From Bellilinea caldifistulae (GTDB lineage: Bacteria > Chloroflexota > Anaerolineae > Anaerolineales > Anaerolineaceae), in NCBI RefSeq assembly GCF_001306055.1, contig NZ_LGHJ01000021.1, positions 1 to 32,000 of the forward strand: a DNA stretch of 32,000 nucleotides, given 5' to 3'. The translations under genes were made by a program, and so were the position numbers. The notes under the pieces are model-generated. The model had not been told where the DNA came from, did no database searches, and saw nothing but the letters and a program-made list of their open reading frames with translations. Of the stretch, positions 6,849 to 20,047 are shown piece after piece; positions within the stretch are counted from its first letter, which is position 1, and each line of letters opens with the position of its first letter.

Positions 6849-6888
6849 TGGCATAAAACTTGCACCATTTGCTGATGATCAGTATACT
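6849..6888 (+). promoter_or_regulatory. overlapping sigma54-like (-24/-12) and sigma70-like promoter elements upstream of rpoN
   Basis: TGGCAT (6849-6854), AAAAC, TTGCA (6860-6864), with the canonical GG-to-GC offset of 12. The same TTGCAC (6860-6865) lies 17 nt from TATACT (6883-6888). The element sits in the 111-nt trmFO/rpoN divergent region, 49 nt before the rpoN ATG. Confidence 0.5.
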
Positions 6889-6912
6889 TTTTTGAGGGAG
6901 CAGGTTGAAAAC

Positions 6913-8313
6913 ATGTTTCAAATCCAGAGTCCCAGTATCCGCACGGTAACTACCGCTCATTTAACCCAGACCATGACCCTCCTGAACCAGACGGTGGGAG
7001 AGTTATATCAGCAAATTCAACAGGAGTTGACCAACCCCGCCCTGGAGCTGGTAGAAGAACGCCGCTGTCCGACCTGTCATCGGGTGCTGCCGGGGCATGG
7101 TGAATGTCCGGTGTGCAGCCGCCCGGTCAGTATGCAGGCGGAAGAACCAGTTGTTTTTGTTTCGCCACGTGAGGATTTTTACTCTTCCGGTGGCTCGAGT
7201 GCGGATTTGATCCCCGATGAACCTGTTTCACCCATTGTGGAAGAGTTGCCCGTCTTCATTTTGCGTCAAATTGCGGTTGAGCTGGAGGGAGAAGAACGAC
7301 GGATTGCCGCCTTTTTCCTGACTCATCTGGATGAGGACGGGTTCTTGACCATTGCACCGGTTGAAATTGCCCAGTATTTTCATGTCCCGCTTTCAAAAGT
7401 GCTGCGTATTAAGCAACTCATCCAGCGCGCCGAACCTGTTGGGGTGGGGTCGGCCAATCCACAGGAAGCTTTGCTGGTTCAACTGGATGTCCTAAATGAA
7501 ACCAAGCCTACTCCTGAGTTAGCCCGGCACATCATTGCTGAGGCGATGGATTTGCTCACCCACCGTCAATACGCGGAAATTGCCCGCAAATTGAATGTTT
7601 CTTATCATCAAGTTCAGGAGACGGTGCGTTTCATTGGTGAAAACCTGAATCCTTTTCCGGCGCGAGCCCATTGGGGGGATGTGAGAAACCCCTCACCGAA
7701 AGCGGGAGAAGTCTATTACCATCCGGATATCATCATCAGTTACCTGAATAATTCTCCAGAAAACCCCCTGGTGGTTGAAATTATCTTGCCGATACGCGGA
7801 TATCTGAGGGTCAACCCTCTATTTCGGCAAGCGGCGCGGATTGCCAGTGAAGAAACCCGGATTGGAATGAAAAATGATCTGGAACGGGCAGCATTATTTG
7901 TCAAATGCTTACAGCAGAGGAACTTTACCATGCAGCGCTTAATGCAGCGGGTGGTCAGTATTCAACGAGATTTCATCTTGCGCGGTGACCGCTATATTAA
8001 ACCGTTGACCCGCGCTTCTCTGGCGGAGGAGCTGGGTGTTCATGAGTCGACCATTTCGCGGGCGGTTTCTAACAAAACAGTTCAATTGCCCAACAAGAAA
8101 ATCATTCCCCTAGCGAATTTCTTTGACCGCAGTCTGAATGTGCGGACGGCATTGCGGGAGATTATCTCAAGGGAAAAAAATCCTCTCAGTGATTCTCAAC
8201 TGGCGCGTTTGCTCGCCCAACAAGGTTATGAAGTTGCCCGGCGAACGGTGGCAAAATATCGGGCAATGGAGGGTATCCTCCCCGCCCACTTACGCAGAGT
8301 TAATCAGGTTTAG
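6913..8313 (+). CDS. rpoN: RNA polymerase sigma-54 factor with a Cys4 insertion in Region II
   Basis: Start reassigned to MFQIQSP (ATG 6913). Region I-like [45 protein letters not shown]. RpoN box ARRTVAKYR near the C-terminus. Confidence 0.9.
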
Positions 8314-8315
8314 AT

Positions 8316-17313: not shown

Positions 17314-19985
17314 AGCAAATTGATAATGAAGATGCAACGCTGATTGCAAGAGGCAGAATTAATCGGAGTACGGCTTTAATCTTGCTGAATTGCGCATTGG
17401 AGTGCGGTGAACTGCGCTTTGCCCGGCAACTGGTGCTTTCGTGGCTGACGGCTTTTCCGGGGGATCTGGAAGTCAACACTCTTTTGGGGGAGTTGTTTTT
17501 CTTGGAAAATAAACTCAACCAGGGCATCACAATTTTGGAAAAAATTGCCCGTCTTGACCCGGAGGACGTCCGAGTACAAAAATTGCTTGCCGGATGGTAT
17601 GCCAGAATGAATAATGAGCAATCCAAAAATGCGGCAATCCGGGTTTATATCCTTGGGGAAAGATTGGATATCGCTCAATCCATGCCGGGGTGGGCAATTA
17701 TTCTCAAAAATGCGCTGAAAGCGTTACAGGAAAACAACCTTGAAACTGCAGAAGTGAATATTTATCAAGCCCTGGCGTTGAATCAGGATGAGGTGCTGGG
17801 GGCAATTTTACATGTCAAGTTGCTGCGGGCTTTGGGAGATTCGGCGGGGGTGATGCGGTTTTGTGAGTTATATCATCAGCGTTGGCCGGAGTGTCTGGTC
17901 TTTCGGCTAGGGTTGGCAGAGAGTCATTTACTGGCGGGTAACGAGACGCAAGCCGTGCAAATGCTGCATCAATGCGCAGCAGAAGACTCCAACGGTCAGG
18001 TCAGTAAACGGTGGTGGGGCGATAATCATCCCTACTTACCCTTGTGGCCGATTCGATACGAGATTACCTTCGGTATTCCCATTCCGGCCAGTATTGCAGG
18101 AAAACTGGGCTGGAATCGCTTGGCCCCAGCCGGCAGTCAAATTCCGACGGTCGAGCCGAGCGAATTGACAGATGATCAATCTGTACCCATGGATGAACAA
18201 ATAACTTCGCATAGCCAAGATATTAAGAACGAATCGGTTGATCAAACGCTCGCATGCGAAAAGGAAGAAAAACTGCCTCGCTTTGAGCGAGTACAGAAAA
18301 AGCCTCCCGCATGGTTGAAGGAAACTGAACAGGAATTTGAGAAACTAGCCAAGCGTCTCAAATCTCCGGCCGTTGCAAAGGCAGATGGACGTTTCCCTAT
18401 TTATGTGATTTTTTCGTCCCGCAGCGGGTTACGTGCGAAATATGGAGAACAGACTACGCAGATTCTTCATCAGGAAATGAACCGGCTGGCAGAAGCCATC
18501 CGTCAACGGGCGGGGTGGGGTGCAATGGTCTTCTATCCAGACGACCTTGAATGCACGGGTAAATTGAGCATGACAACCATTTCGGGGAATGATCCATGGA
18601 AAATGAAGCTGTCGCTGGCAGATTTGGATCAGGCACTTGCCAGAAAAGGCGGGCGAATTGGTGCTTTGATGATTGTGGGCGGACCGGATGTGGTGCCATT
18701 TCACCGGTTACCGAACCCAACCGATGACTCTGACGAGGAGGTCTTGTCCGATAACCCATACAGTACCCTGGATTCCAATTATTTCATACCGGAATGGCCG
18801 GTTGGGCGCTTACCCGGTGAAAAAGGTTCCGACGCTGGATTATTGCTGCAACAGATACGGAGTGCGATACAGTATCATCAAAAAAAACAGAAGACCCAAA
18901 AAGGTGTAAAACCAGAGCGCTTTTTATTCGATTTGTTACGCTGGCTATTTTTATATCGCCGTCCCCAGCCCTCACCTTCCAGCAAAGATCGGTTTGGATA
19001 TACTGCAGCTGTGTGGAGGCGCTCTTCGGTGGCAAGTTTTAAGCCGGTCAGTACCGAAACAGCCGTGCTGGTTTCACCGCCTCATCAAACGCGAACCTTT
19101 GACCCGGAAAAACTGGTGCGCTCCGAGCTGGGCTTTTACAACCTGCACGGTTTAGCTGAAACCGCCGAATGGTACGGCCAGCGTGATCCCCGCGAAAGCG
19201 GGAATGGATCGGAATATCCCGTGGCGTTAACACTGGCGGATTTGCCAAAAAATGGTCATTCGCCCCGAATTGTCTTCAGCGAAGCCTGTTATGGCGGCTA
19301 TATTGTGGACAAGGAAGAGAACACCTCCCTGGCTTTGCGCTTCCTTTCCATTGGAACAAGAGCAGTAATCGCCTCCACCGGAATTGCTTATGGGGCAGTC
19401 AGTCCACCGTTGGTTGGCGCAGACTTGTTGGCAAACCTATTTTGGAAAGCCATAGCCGAGGGATATTCGGCGGGTGATGCGCTGGTACAGGCAAAAATTG
19501 GCATGGCCCGTGAGATGAATAAGCGGCAGGGTTTTCTGGATGGTGAAGATCAAAAGACTTTGATTTCTTTTGTATTATATGGAGATCCTCTGGTTTGTGC
19601 TGACTCACAACCAGTTAAATCGAAAAAGTACGTCCGAAGCCGCACCCATTGGAACATCAAGACGGTCAGTGATCATGCTAACGGCGATGGTGAACTGAGT
19701 ATCGCAAATGAGGAGCTGGTTCAACAAGCCAAAGCAGCGGTAGAAGCCTATCTGCCGGGTATTGATTTGGCGGATGTTCGTTATCGCTTGCAAAAGGTTG
19801 GGGTAGATCCAAATGTCTCTGACGGAAAAAACAATACAAATTTTGAAAGTGGCAACACTTTAGTCAACCGAAAGGTGTTCATTTTTCAAAGAAAGATTTT
19901 CTTCGGCGGCCACACCCACAACCACTATGCTCGGGTGACACTAACCCCGGAAGGAAAATTGCTCAAGATGAGCGTATCCCGCTAA
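17304..19985 (+). CDS. TPR-repeat protein with a C-terminal clan CD (gingipain C25 / CHAT / caspase-fold) cysteine-peptidase-like domain
   Basis: ATG 17304 overlaps the upstream stop (ATGCCTGTAA), with AGGAGG at 17291-17296. N-terminal TPR-like helices are followed by an acidic linker. C-terminal motifs: MIVGGPDVVPF, SDNPYS, WPVGRLPG, YNLHG (His codon 19146-19148), FSEACYGG (Cys codon 19287-19289), VLYGDPL. Confidence 0.7.
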   Translation: MPVKQIDNEDATLIARGRINRSTALILLNCALECGELRFARQLVLSWLTAFPGDLEVNTLLGELFFLENKLNQGITILEKIARLDPEDVRVQKLLAGWYARMNNEQSKNAAIRVYILGERLDIAQSMPGWAIILKNALKALQENNLETAEVNIYQALALNQDEVLGAILHVKLLRALGDSAGVMRFCELYHQRWPECLVFRLGLAESHLLAGNETQAVQMLHQCAAEDSNGQVSKRWWGDNHPYLPLWPIRYEITFGIPIPASIAGKLGWNRLAPAGSQIPTVEPSELTDDQSVPMDEQITSHSQDIKNESVDQTLACEKEEKLPRFERVQKKPPAWLKETEQEFEKLAKRLKSPAVAKADGRFPIYVIFSSRSGLRAKYGEQTTQILHQEMNRLAEAIRQRAGWGAMVFYPDDLECTGKLSMTTISGNDPWKMKLSLADLDQALARKGGRIGALMIVGGPDVVPFHRLPNPTDDSDEEVLSDNPYSTLDSNYFIPEWPVGRLPGEKGSDAGLLLQQIRSAIQYHQKKQKTQKGVKPERFLFDLLRWLFLYRRPQPSPSSKDRFGYTAAVWRRSSVASFKPVSTETAVLVSPPHQTRTFDPEKLVRSELGFYNLHGLAETAEWYGQRDPRESGNGSEYPVALTLADLPKNGHSPRIVFSEACYGGYIVDKEENTSLALRFLSIGTRAVIASTGIAYGAVSPPLVGADLLANLFWKAIAEGYSAGDALVQAKIGMAREMNKRQGFLDGEDQKTLISFVLYGDPLVCADSQPVKSKKYVRSRTHWNIKTVSDHANGDGELSIANEELVQQAKAAVEAYLPGIDLADVRYRLQKVGVDPNVSDGKNNTNFESGNTLVNRKVFIFQRKIFFGGHTHNHYARVTLTPEGKLLKMSVSR

Positions 19986-20014
19986 TTTCAGTTTCAGGCT
20001 CCCATCTCTGTGAC

Positions 20015-20047
20015 AGGATCCATCCAAAAGGATGGATCCTCGCTATT
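20015..20047 (+). terminator. hairpin terminator candidate ending the sigma54-driven operon
   Basis: Perfect 11-bp stem: AGGATCCATCC (20015-20025), AAAA loop, GGATGGATCCT (20030-20040). It begins 30 nt after the stop at 19985. The downstream T-tract is weak (CGCTATTTGG). Confidence 0.55.

Follow-up and report, generated by a model that had tools for sequence, protein, structure and literature searches.

In a 32,000-nucleotide (nt) stretch of DNA from Bellilinea caldifistulae (class Anaerolineae, Chloroflexota), referred to below as the window and whose positions serve as coordinates, the sigma-54 gene rpoN is followed by genes for a histidine kinase, a sigma-54 activator and an output module. 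The latter is made of a small protein with two transmembrane segments (2-TM), a giant tetratricopeptide repeat (TPR) protein and a TPR protein with a C25 peptidase domain (TPR/C25). We propose, with moderate confidence, that this locus is the Anaerolineaceae form of a class-wide Anaerolineae sigma-54 regulon, composed of two adjacent transcription units and endowed with an FtsZ-linked output. The proposal is carried by the gene content and the domains of the products, by the conservation of the gene order and of both promoters, by covariation in a hairpin located at the second promoter, by the fold and the dyad of the protease, and by the linkage to ftsZ in sister lineages. The features of the locus are as follows.

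6849-6864, plus strand: P1, sigma-54 (-24/-12) promoter TGGCATAAAACTTGCA, 49 nt 5' of the rpoN ATG
6860-6888, plus strand: sigma-70-like promoter overlapping P1 (-35 TTGCAC at 6860-6865, 17-nt spacer, -10 TATACT at 6883-6888)
6913-8313, plus strand: rpoN (sigma-54, 466 aa), ATG at 6913, with region I, core-binding and DNA-binding domains, RpoN box and a zinc-ribbon-like insert
8316-10271, plus strand: soluble sensor histidine kinase (651 aa) with PAS (27-114), PAS (307-412), HisKA and HATPase_c domains (Pfam)
10274-11449, plus strand: sigma-54 activator (391 aa) with a REC domain (Asp53), an AAA+ domain and a lid
11461-11476, plus strand: P2, sigma-54 promoter TGGCACATTTCTTGCA, 11 nt past the activator stop, predicted start near 11487
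11478-11516, plus strand: leader hairpin, 5' arm at about -9 to +2 relative to the predicted P2 start, minimum free energy (MFE) of -15.4 kcal/mol in the window
11514-11843, plus strand: 2-TM protein (109 aa), two transmembrane segments and the conserved basic loop AQKGIxExxxGLVGNA
11887-17313, plus strand: TPR protein (1808 aa), no signal peptide
17304-19985, plus strand: TPR/C25 protein (893 aa) with TPR (about 20-270), a linker, a Peptidase_C25/clan CD domain (about 360-790) and a C-terminal beta domain of about 95 aa
19146-19148 and 19287-19289, plus strand: putative catalytic residues His615 and Cys662 of the 893-aa protein, both invariant

P2 and the gene order are conserved

The open reading frame (ORF) listing and the family scans gave six ORFs (rpoN, kinase, activator, 2-TM, TPR and TPR/C25), all on the plus strand. 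As stated in an original prediction made for this DNA, 2 nt separate rpoN from the kinase gene as well as the kinase gene from the activator gene, the TPR and TPR/C25 genes overlap, and an exact TGGCAC-N5-TTGCA, our P2, is found 11 nt past the activator stop; all these distances were confirmed, the overlap being of 10 nt. No terminator was found between the activator gene and P2. An exact-sequence look-up of the 893-aa protein gave no match; in a homolog search, it showed 100% identity to a B. caldifistulae protein annotated as peptidase family C25.

The conservation scan was carried out on species-representative genomes, from which 80 loci were kept, all with Anaerolineae-type names, and 62 of these had 10 kb of upstream sequence. 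Relatives of the C25 protein are encoded in at least 562 species genomes. The order rpoN-kinase-activator-promoter-2TM-TPR-TPR/C25 is kept in 61 of the 62 informative related genomes, with alaS coming next in most of them, and the synteny test set by the original prediction thus has a positive outcome. The P2 core (GGCAY-N5-TTGCA) is present at the same place in 62/62 loci; in its strict form, TGGCA[CT]-N5-TTGC[AT], the promoter follows the activator stop in 58 of them, the other 4 carrying A/CGGCAY-N5-TTGCA. Elsewhere than at the conserved site, the related loci (1.53 Mb, searched on both strands) contained a single strict match. This conservation, taken together with the single stray match, indicates that P2 is under selection.

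The exception to the gene order is Anaerolinea thermolimosa (L041), which has kept promoter-2TM-TPR-C25 and where two ABC transporter genes upstream replace rpoN-kinase-activator. Since this locus is devoid of an adjacent cassette, it appears that the regulators are able to act in trans. The cassette is not linked to its targets in A. thermolimosa and in two sister-lineage loci described below (L162 and L166); cassette-target adjacency is common and not required. The L041 locus (1-13436) also contains a Peptidase_C14 (caspase) gene, convergent and downstream (12657-13436). Sigma factor, sensor, activator, promoters and targets had been proposed to be packaged together, and they are indeed inherited as one circuit: this sigma-54 circuit is dedicated and co-inherited.

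A predicted sigma-54 promoter precedes rpoN

The start coordinate of the original prediction, 6849, is that of P1 itself, a promoter which had not been mentioned. P1 lies within the 111-nt spacer common to rpoN and the divergent trmFO gene. The sequence TGGCAY-N5-TTGCW occurs exactly twice in the window (P1 and P2) versus 0.14 matches expected. Scanning metagenomes with a profile of rpoN yielded 22 orthologous loci, 20 of which included upstream DNA, and a P1-equivalent site was present 50-110 nt 5' of rpoN in 19 of these 20 loci, as well as in 7/7 extended loci.

The TTGCAC sequence at 6860-6865 is at the same time the -12 element of P1 and the -35 of the sigma-70-like promoter. A -10-like hexamer was found at 16-18 nt spacing in 11/23 P1 regions versus 5/64 P2 regions, and anywhere within 54 nt in 21/23 versus 21/64. 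In this arrangement of overlapping promoters, sigma-70 would ensure basal expression and sigma-54 would ensure self-amplification. As P1 is conserved and overlaps a sigma-70-like promoter, the rpoN-kinase-activator cassette probably activates itself. One might speculate that a bound, unactivated sigma-54 holoenzyme blocks the sigma-70 -35 element.

The rpoN product contains the domains Sigma54_CBD (PF04963, 1.6e-29) and Sigma54_DBD (PF04552, 3.2e-32), and its RpoN box, ARRTVAKYR, corresponds to residues 442-450 (8236-8262). Region I is present: the TIGR02395 alignment spans model positions 5-434, the region I residues are invariant, and PF00309 is recorded in most rpoN orthologs. Directly after region I comes a CPxC-x9-CPxC zinc-ribbon-like insert (residues 52-68, 7066-7116), which is invariant in 21/21 rpoN orthologs and is also found in 7/28 more distant metagenome rpoN genes, L103-L106, L111 and L113 among these.

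Distant rpoN genes (27-32% identity, unknown phyla) have -24/-12-like sites upstream too, for example RGGCATATAATTTGCT. Such sites lie about 135 nt 5' of rpoN in L119, L123, L128, L135 and L141, and are also found in L108 (1086) and L110 (4802); they suggest a sigma-54 autoregulation of rpoN in other lineages as well.

The activator is devoid of a DNA-binding domain

The kinase had been described as a soluble PAS-GAF-PAS protein. It contains no hydrophobic segment and two PAS domains are given by Pfam, in agreement with this description, except that the GAF domain has to be withdrawn, nothing being detected between the two PAS domains even at E<=1.

In the activator, Pfam recognizes Response_reg, Sigma54_activat (PF00158, 1.5e-68) and AAA_lid. 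The Walker motifs are GETGSGKE (Walker A, 10778-10801) and LFLDE, and the sigma-54 contact loop is GAFTSA (10919-10936). The alignment of the protein to the NtrC model ends at position 383 of 463, meaning that the helix-turn-helix (HTH) is absent, as had been predicted. All complete orthologs (68/68) are 385-397 aa long, which leaves no room for an HTH. Their contact loop reads GAFTGA in 29 cases and GAFTSA in 21, the remainder being FT- or YT-containing variants. Around the promoters little DNA is available, since P2 is only 11 nt away from the activator coding sequence and P1 is confined to the short spacer shared with trmFO, which would fit, indirectly, with an activation that needs no enhancer. 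No second activator and no second rpoN were found in the flanks of 102 related loci, which is weak evidence because these flanks are a small fraction of the genomes.

A distant lineage (L145, 5929-10340) also has rpoN-kinase-activator, followed by TGGCACATGCCTTGCA. Its activator carries HTH_8, and other genes lie downstream, coding for a zinc-ribbon protein and a DsbD-like protein.

A hairpin covers the translation start downstream of P2

The 5' arm of the leader hairpin pairs with the ribosome-binding site GGGAGGAAGG and with the ATG of the 2-TM gene. In every locus, the sequence running from the -12 element to the start codon of the 2-TM gene contains a strong inverted repeat, whose 3' arm is the ribosome-binding site and often the ATG too. 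For 65 distinct leaders, the mean MFE was -18.1 kcal/mol when the 10 nt located 5' of the predicted +1 were included, and -3.3 when the RNA was started at +1; compared with shuffled sequences, the leaders gave z = -5.6. The pairing of each 3' arm is also better with its own 5' arm (-18.6) than with arms taken from other loci (-11.7).

We then looked at covariation by anchoring the arms on the fold of each sequence. As such anchoring biases towards pairing, shuffled and slid controls were used. With anchored arms 84.4% of the cells pair, compared with 69.5% in shuffles (0/500), and 120 cells show a double change versus 43. The covariation score was 0.477, against 0.211, and at most 0.136 for slid partners. 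MAFFT followed by RNAalifold on the raw leader alignment recovered only 7 pairs, owing to indels. The base pairing with the first G of GGAG is the predicted +1 in 34/50 leaders, with a 5' arm going back to -10 to -4. At P1 and at the promoters of X and ftsZ (see below), no leader structure was detected (z near 0). In two of the X leaders (L164, 9954-10003, and L109, 5659-5706), the -24 TGGCAC is complementary to a GTGCCA located just before the ATG, which may be due to chance.

Since the 5' arm lies upstream of the predicted P2 start, only RNA reading through from the upstream genes should be silenced. Fold-back inhibition is the simplest reading of the P2 leader, and through it read-through RNA would be silenced. 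The hairpin might instead be a T-less terminator of rpoN-kinase-activator, an RNA thermometer or translational switch acting on the P2 transcripts, or a 5' stabiliser, an explanation that we find possible though doubtful. The position of the P2 start is only predicted, RNA starting at -2 retains part of the stem (mean -6.2 kcal/mol), and the Shine-Dalgarno (SD) sequence is still paired in the +1-start RNA for 13/65 leaders; a thermometer would also suit B. caldifistulae, which is a thermophile. However, the arm reaches -10 to -4, and a sigma-54 transcript cannot contain sequence so far upstream; moreover the stem is not followed by a T-run, the other sigma-54 leaders are unstructured, and the hairpin is found only where the promoter abuts a terminator-less upstream gene.

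Fold-back inhibition has a counterpart in the transposase mRNA of IS10 and IS50, where, as reportedly described by Davis, Simons and Kleckner in 1985, transcripts coming from outside include a segment able to pair with the translation start, whereas those of the own promoter begin inside this segment and can be translated. In comparison, the fold-back proposed here would insulate a sigma-54-dependent operon from the read-through of its own regulator operon.

The output proteins include a putative gingipain-like protease

Homologs of the 2-TM protein (104-127 aa, two segments, AQKGIxExxxGLVGNA loop) were found between the activator and TPR genes in 62/62 loci by an ORF-based search; this protein has no Pfam, NCBIfam or PADLOC match. 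The N-terminal 440 aa or so of the 1808-aa TPR protein have no family match either. No membrane or signal segment was found in the kinase, the TPR giant or the C25 protein. The output had been predicted to be devoid of signal peptides, which is confirmed; the C25 protein has no hydrophobic N-terminus.

A gingipain/caspase-fold (clan CD) domain had also been predicted in the 893-aa protein. In a full-length Pfam scan, Peptidase_C25 was not listed at E<=0.01, and a sequence-only PDB profile search returned TPR proteins only. A full-length AlphaFold model built with 20 sequences had a mean predicted local distance difference test (pLDDT) of 61.7 and a disordered catalytic region, and its PDB matches were TPR only. 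When the C-terminal 561 aa were scanned alone, Peptidase_C25 was found with E=2.1e-12 (47.4 bits versus a gathering cutoff of 23). An AlphaFold model of the C-terminal 554 aa with 112 homologs reached a pLDDT of 84.7 and a predicted template modelling score (pTM) of 0.86. The best Foldseek matches of this domain model were gingipain K and RgpB (4rbm, 4.7e-11; 1cvr, 8.3e-11), followed by SAVED-CHAT, Craspase TPR-CHAT and separase. A comparison with a viral structure library gave no match. His615-Gly and Cys662 are invariant in the 112 homologs, which span 40-87% identity. The Pfam match, the Foldseek matches and the invariant His-Cys dyad thus bear out the predicted domain: as modelled, it has a caspase/gingipain fold with a conserved His-Cys dyad, and it is a putative protease.

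Could the C25-like domain be a non-catalytic binding module, the output then being purely a scaffold? Its sequence identity to gingipains is only 12-13% and its activity is putative, and yet the His615-Gly and Cys662 residues do not vary over the whole identity range of the homologs, a pattern expected of an active dyad. We regard a loss of catalysis as quite unlikely, and favor a catalytic C25 domain.

The output genes are linked to ftsZ in sister lineages

In the orthologous locus L099, the activator gene is followed by a promoter, then by a gene for a 387-aa protein that we call X, and then by ftsZ. A search for homologs of protein X combined with context look-ups gave nine more loci. The genes of interest in these sister lineages are the following.

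L099 10683-11846 and L161-L170 10001-~11400: protein X (387-506 aa), always just 5' of ftsZ and with its own sigma-54 promoter
L161 12621-12866, L162 12693-12935, L165 12474-12713 and others: s81 (about 80 aa), directly after ftsZ
L161 8211-9737, L164 8304-9812, L167 8274-9587, L169 8341-9822 and L088 10703-12289, minus strand: 437-528-aa protein encoded opposite to the other genes

The common order is [rpoN-kinase-activator]-(opposite-strand gene)-X-ftsZ-s81-(variable small genes)-2TM-TPR giant-TPR/C25. The X-ftsZ-s81-...-2TM-TPR-C25 cluster is found in ten sister-lineage loci, seven of which include the cassette. The whole cluster lies on one strand in L165 and L170, the cassette is not nearby in L162 and L168, and L166 contains only X-ftsZ-s81 and two small genes. 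The assignment of ftsZ is based on TIGR00065 (365 bits versus an equivalog cutoff of 295). Sigma-54 promoters were found 5' of X (10/10), of ftsZ (10/10) and of rpoN (7/7). There was none directly before the 2-TM gene in the sister-lineage loci, where this gene is inside the ftsZ operon.

Protein X occupies the position upstream of ftsZ that belongs to ftsA in many bacteria. No Pfam, NCBIfam or PDB match was obtained for it; it has 568 homologs, and the named ones come from Anaerolineales or from Chloroflexi metagenome-assembled genomes. The s81 protein, small and cytoplasmic, exists on its own and is homologous to the C-terminal ~95 residues of the TPR/C25 protein (hhalign 95.5%, E=1.5e-8). 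BLASTP gave no match between the two and profile-profile comparison was positive; both proteins end with RV..x..GK..K...SR. The domain common to s81 and the C25 protein may bind a common partner. The gene for the 437-528-aa protein is conserved in several lineages, where it separates the activator gene from X and lies on the other strand; the three members scanned (L088, L109 and L164) gave no family match.

Sigma-54 promoters precede both X and ftsZ in all ten loci, and the clade regulon, as deduced from these sites, is therefore made of at least three promoters and includes ftsZ and X. The gene order of the window lineage differs from that of the X-ftsZ-s81 loci, which indicates that the arrangement in the window is a derived one: X-ftsZ-s81 are not between activator and 2TM, and the 2-TM gene has its own promoter together with a hairpin predicted to be insulating.

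These data also modify the idea of a private sigma-54 circuit, possibly the only sigma-54 regulon of the genome. The circuit is dedicated and co-packaged, as had been proposed; a single private target is not supported, considering the ten loci with sigma-54 promoters before X and ftsZ. Conversely, one may suppose that sigma-54 acts as an ordinary global factor, served by several activators and directing many promoters, the conserved adjacency having no special functional meaning. The further promoters upstream of X and ftsZ would fit with this, as would the unlinked cassette and targets of L041, L162 and L166. Nevertheless, the additional promoters found are all those of this one gene set, the flanks of the 102 related loci contain neither a second activator nor a second rpoN, and a sigma-54 promoter before rpoN is unexpected for a constitutive global factor. 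In addition, the 68 activator orthologs have no DNA-binding domain, and the Chlamydia precedent (CtcC) has a single activator (PMC3162934, PMC7482065). We thus consider a global role unlikely and retain a dedicated regulon.

The output had been suggested to be a free-standing cytoplasmic module for proteolysis, cell fate or stress. With the ftsZ cluster found in ten sister-lineage loci, it is better read as an FtsZ-associated module. The combination of TPR and a clan CD protease also recalls anti-phage or conflict systems such as TPR-CHAT/Craspase or SAVED-CHAT, acting by abortive infection or cell death. Foldseek matches SAVED-CHAT, Craspase TPR-CHAT and separase in addition to the gingipains, and the Peptidase_C14 caspase gene adjoins the operon in A. 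thermolimosa. However, PADLOC gave no match for the 2-TM and C25 proteins and only one weak local TPR-type hit for the TPR giant; in most of the 80 species the operon occupies a fixed site, in single copy, with trmFO on one side and alaS on the other and no mobility genes, and it is clustered with ftsZ in ten lineages. Its distribution (at least 562 species, 40-80% identity) is the pattern of a core gene and not of a patchy defence island. A defence role is therefore very unlikely, and on the grounds of the PADLOC results, the fixed synteny and the ftsZ linkage we rejected it in favor of an FtsZ-associated module.

A working model for the regulon

In the model that we propose, the first transcription unit would be P1-rpoN-kinase-activator, with a basal expression given by the overlapping sigma-70-type promoter. 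A cytoplasmic signal, sensed by the soluble PAS kinase, would cause the activator to be phosphorylated on its REC domain. Because it lacks a DNA-binding domain, the activator would act from solution on sigma-54 holoenzyme already bound to the promoter. Induction through P1 would raise the levels of sigma-54, kinase and activator, a positive feedback that follows from the presence of P1 among the promoters on which the activator acts. The second unit would be P2-2TM-TPR-TPR/C25, with no terminator after the first one; read-through RNA coming from the first unit would be translationally silent and only the RNA started at P2 would be translated. Of its products, the 2-TM protein would be a small membrane anchor and the TPR giant a very large scaffold in the cytoplasm, and the third would be a cysteine peptidase of the gingipain/caspase fold, tethered by its TPR domain. 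In sister lineages, the output genes would form the tail of a sigma-54-driven operon starting at ftsZ, with gene X before it. The output module would most likely work with FtsZ, for example by remodelling proteins of division or of the septum, or by cleaving them, in bacteria that grow as filaments.

Several points weigh against this reading. That sigma-54 is required, where the two transcripts start and that a sigma-70 promoter exists are all predicted from sequence. The score of the rpoN product with TIGR02395 (254.6 bits) is below the equivalog cutoff of 277.35, which may reflect the zinc-ribbon-like insert and also divergence. The contact loop of the activator is GAFTSA instead of GAFTGA, and it is more divergent in some orthologs. 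Fold-back requires that the P2 start be within about 2 nt of the canonical position, and with a start at least 4 nt further upstream the transcript would carry the anti-SD segment; the other roles weighed above for the hairpin (T-less terminator, RNA thermometer, stabiliser) count here as well. In the window, as in the 80 Anaerolineaceae loci, neither X nor ftsZ was found at a distance of up to 10 kb, and the FtsZ link rests on the sister lineages. Lastly, both the activity of the protease and its cleavage target are putative.

One can go further and propose that a dedicated, self-amplifying sigma-54 switch controls not only ftsZ but also a giant TPR scaffold anchored to the membrane and a cytoplasmic clan CD protease resembling separase, giving a signal-gated division or differentiation through divisome proteolysis, X and s81 being new FtsZ partners. 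We put this forward as a tentative and rather improbable extension of the model. If it were true, the possible outcomes would be filament fragmentation, septum remodelling or a change in cell fate.

Sigma-54 is usually a dispersed global factor whose logic is hard to isolate; here it belongs to a compact cluster conserved across a class. This cluster could be used as a natural minimal system in which to study activation without enhancers, the autoregulation of sigma-54 and the insulation from read-through. It also gives an entry point to the cell biology of the Anaerolineae, which are filamentous, abundant in digesters and sediments, and little known. The ftsZ gene of the sister lineages, with its sigma-54 promoter and co-inherited with X, s81 and the giant TPR/caspase-fold pair, designates these proteins as candidates for a new division or differentiation machinery.

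Comparison with known systems

We found in the literature no published description of this cluster, of its clade-wide linkage or of its output module. The regulatory parts have precedents, namely HTH-less activators, autoactivated rpoN and fold-back inhibition; for their combination no description was found. The original prediction that no described system has such an architecture thus stands for the cluster as a whole and not for HTH-less activators and autoactivated rpoN, which are known.

A histidine kinase associated with a REC-AAA+ activator devoid of a DNA-binding domain, and thought to be enhancer-free, is also found in CtcB-CtcC of Chlamydia and FlgS-FlgR of Helicobacter. CtcC has no DNA-binding domain (PMC7482065), and Chlamydia has a single activator with a small developmental regulon (PMC7482065, PMC3162934). 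In contrast to the Chlamydia and Helicobacter systems, here rpoN opens the kinase/activator operon and is preceded by a sigma-54 promoter of its own, the target operon is found 11 nt past the activator gene, and the targets are the TPR/C25 module (and ftsZ in sister lineages) instead of flagellar or type III secretion genes.

The Hk2-Rrp2-RpoN-RpoS cascade of Borrelia differs from the present one in that its rpoN lies outside the kinase/activator operon and its direct target is rpoS. Borrelia Rrp2 retains its HTH. The likeness is that of a dedicated cascade, Borrelia, as Chlamydia, having one activator per genome (PMC3162934).

In the account given by PMC6925177, which cites Cullen et al. 1994, the rpoN gene of Rhodobacter capsulatus is expressed from a weak constitutive promoter and from a promoter activated by NifA/RpoN. 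As in this nifU2-rpoN superoperon, the rpoN gene studied here is linked to targets; the constitutive and sigma-54 promoters and the positive feedback of the superoperon (PMC6925177) have predicted counterparts here. The NifA activator of R. capsulatus is a DNA-binding protein whose gene lies elsewhere, and nifU2 stands between the two promoters, whereas here the kinase and the HTH-less activator are in the same operon as rpoN and the predicted sigma-54 -12 element doubles as the sigma-70 -35.

As regards the output, the 893-aa protein resembles gingipains by its C25 match above the gathering score, its RgpB/Kgp fold and its His-Gly...Cys dyad. Unlike them, it has no signal peptide, neither a prodomain nor a type IX secretion C-terminal domain was detected, and it carries an N-terminal TPR and a C-terminal s81-like domain, with a predicted cytoplasmic location. 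The association of a helical-repeat scaffold with a caspase-fold protease is shared with separase, which is linked to the cell cycle, and with Craspase (TPR-CHAT, Csx29), the model matching at E of about 1e-4. In contrast to separase and Craspase, neither the CHAT family of Pfam nor PADLOC gave a match, and CRISPR genes are absent from the context; the likeness is one of architecture and not an established kinship.

Flanking genes and ends of the locus

On one side, the locus is flanked by trmFO and by genes for an M28 peptidase, a histidine kinase, an aminotransferase and hflX; on the other side are found alaS and genes for a metallophosphoesterase, a DJ-1 protein and glycine cleavage. In line with the original prediction, the family scans revealed no mobility gene among the flanking ORFs. 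The flanking histidine kinase (3248-4501, minus strand, 417 aa, HisKA and HATPase_c) is encoded between the aminotransferase and M28 peptidase genes, and no response regulator was found among the neighbouring ORFs scanned. Two further features mark the downstream end of the locus.

20015-20040, plus strand: terminal hairpin 3' of the last gene, perfect 11-bp stem AGGATCCATCC-AAAA-GGATGGATCCT with a 4-nt loop
20058-20086, plus strand: sigma-70-like promoter of alaS, TTGCTA-17-TATAAT, with an ATG downstream at 20137

The perfect 11-bp hairpin predicted at the end of the operon is thus located at 20015-20040. It is not followed by a T-run, and it is likely the end of the transcription unit. The alaS ORF as delimited mechanically, from a GTG at 20010, would span this hairpin. 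As a sigma-70-like promoter and an ATG are present downstream of this GTG, the true start of alaS is probably the ATG at 20137, expressed from its own sigma-70-like promoter.

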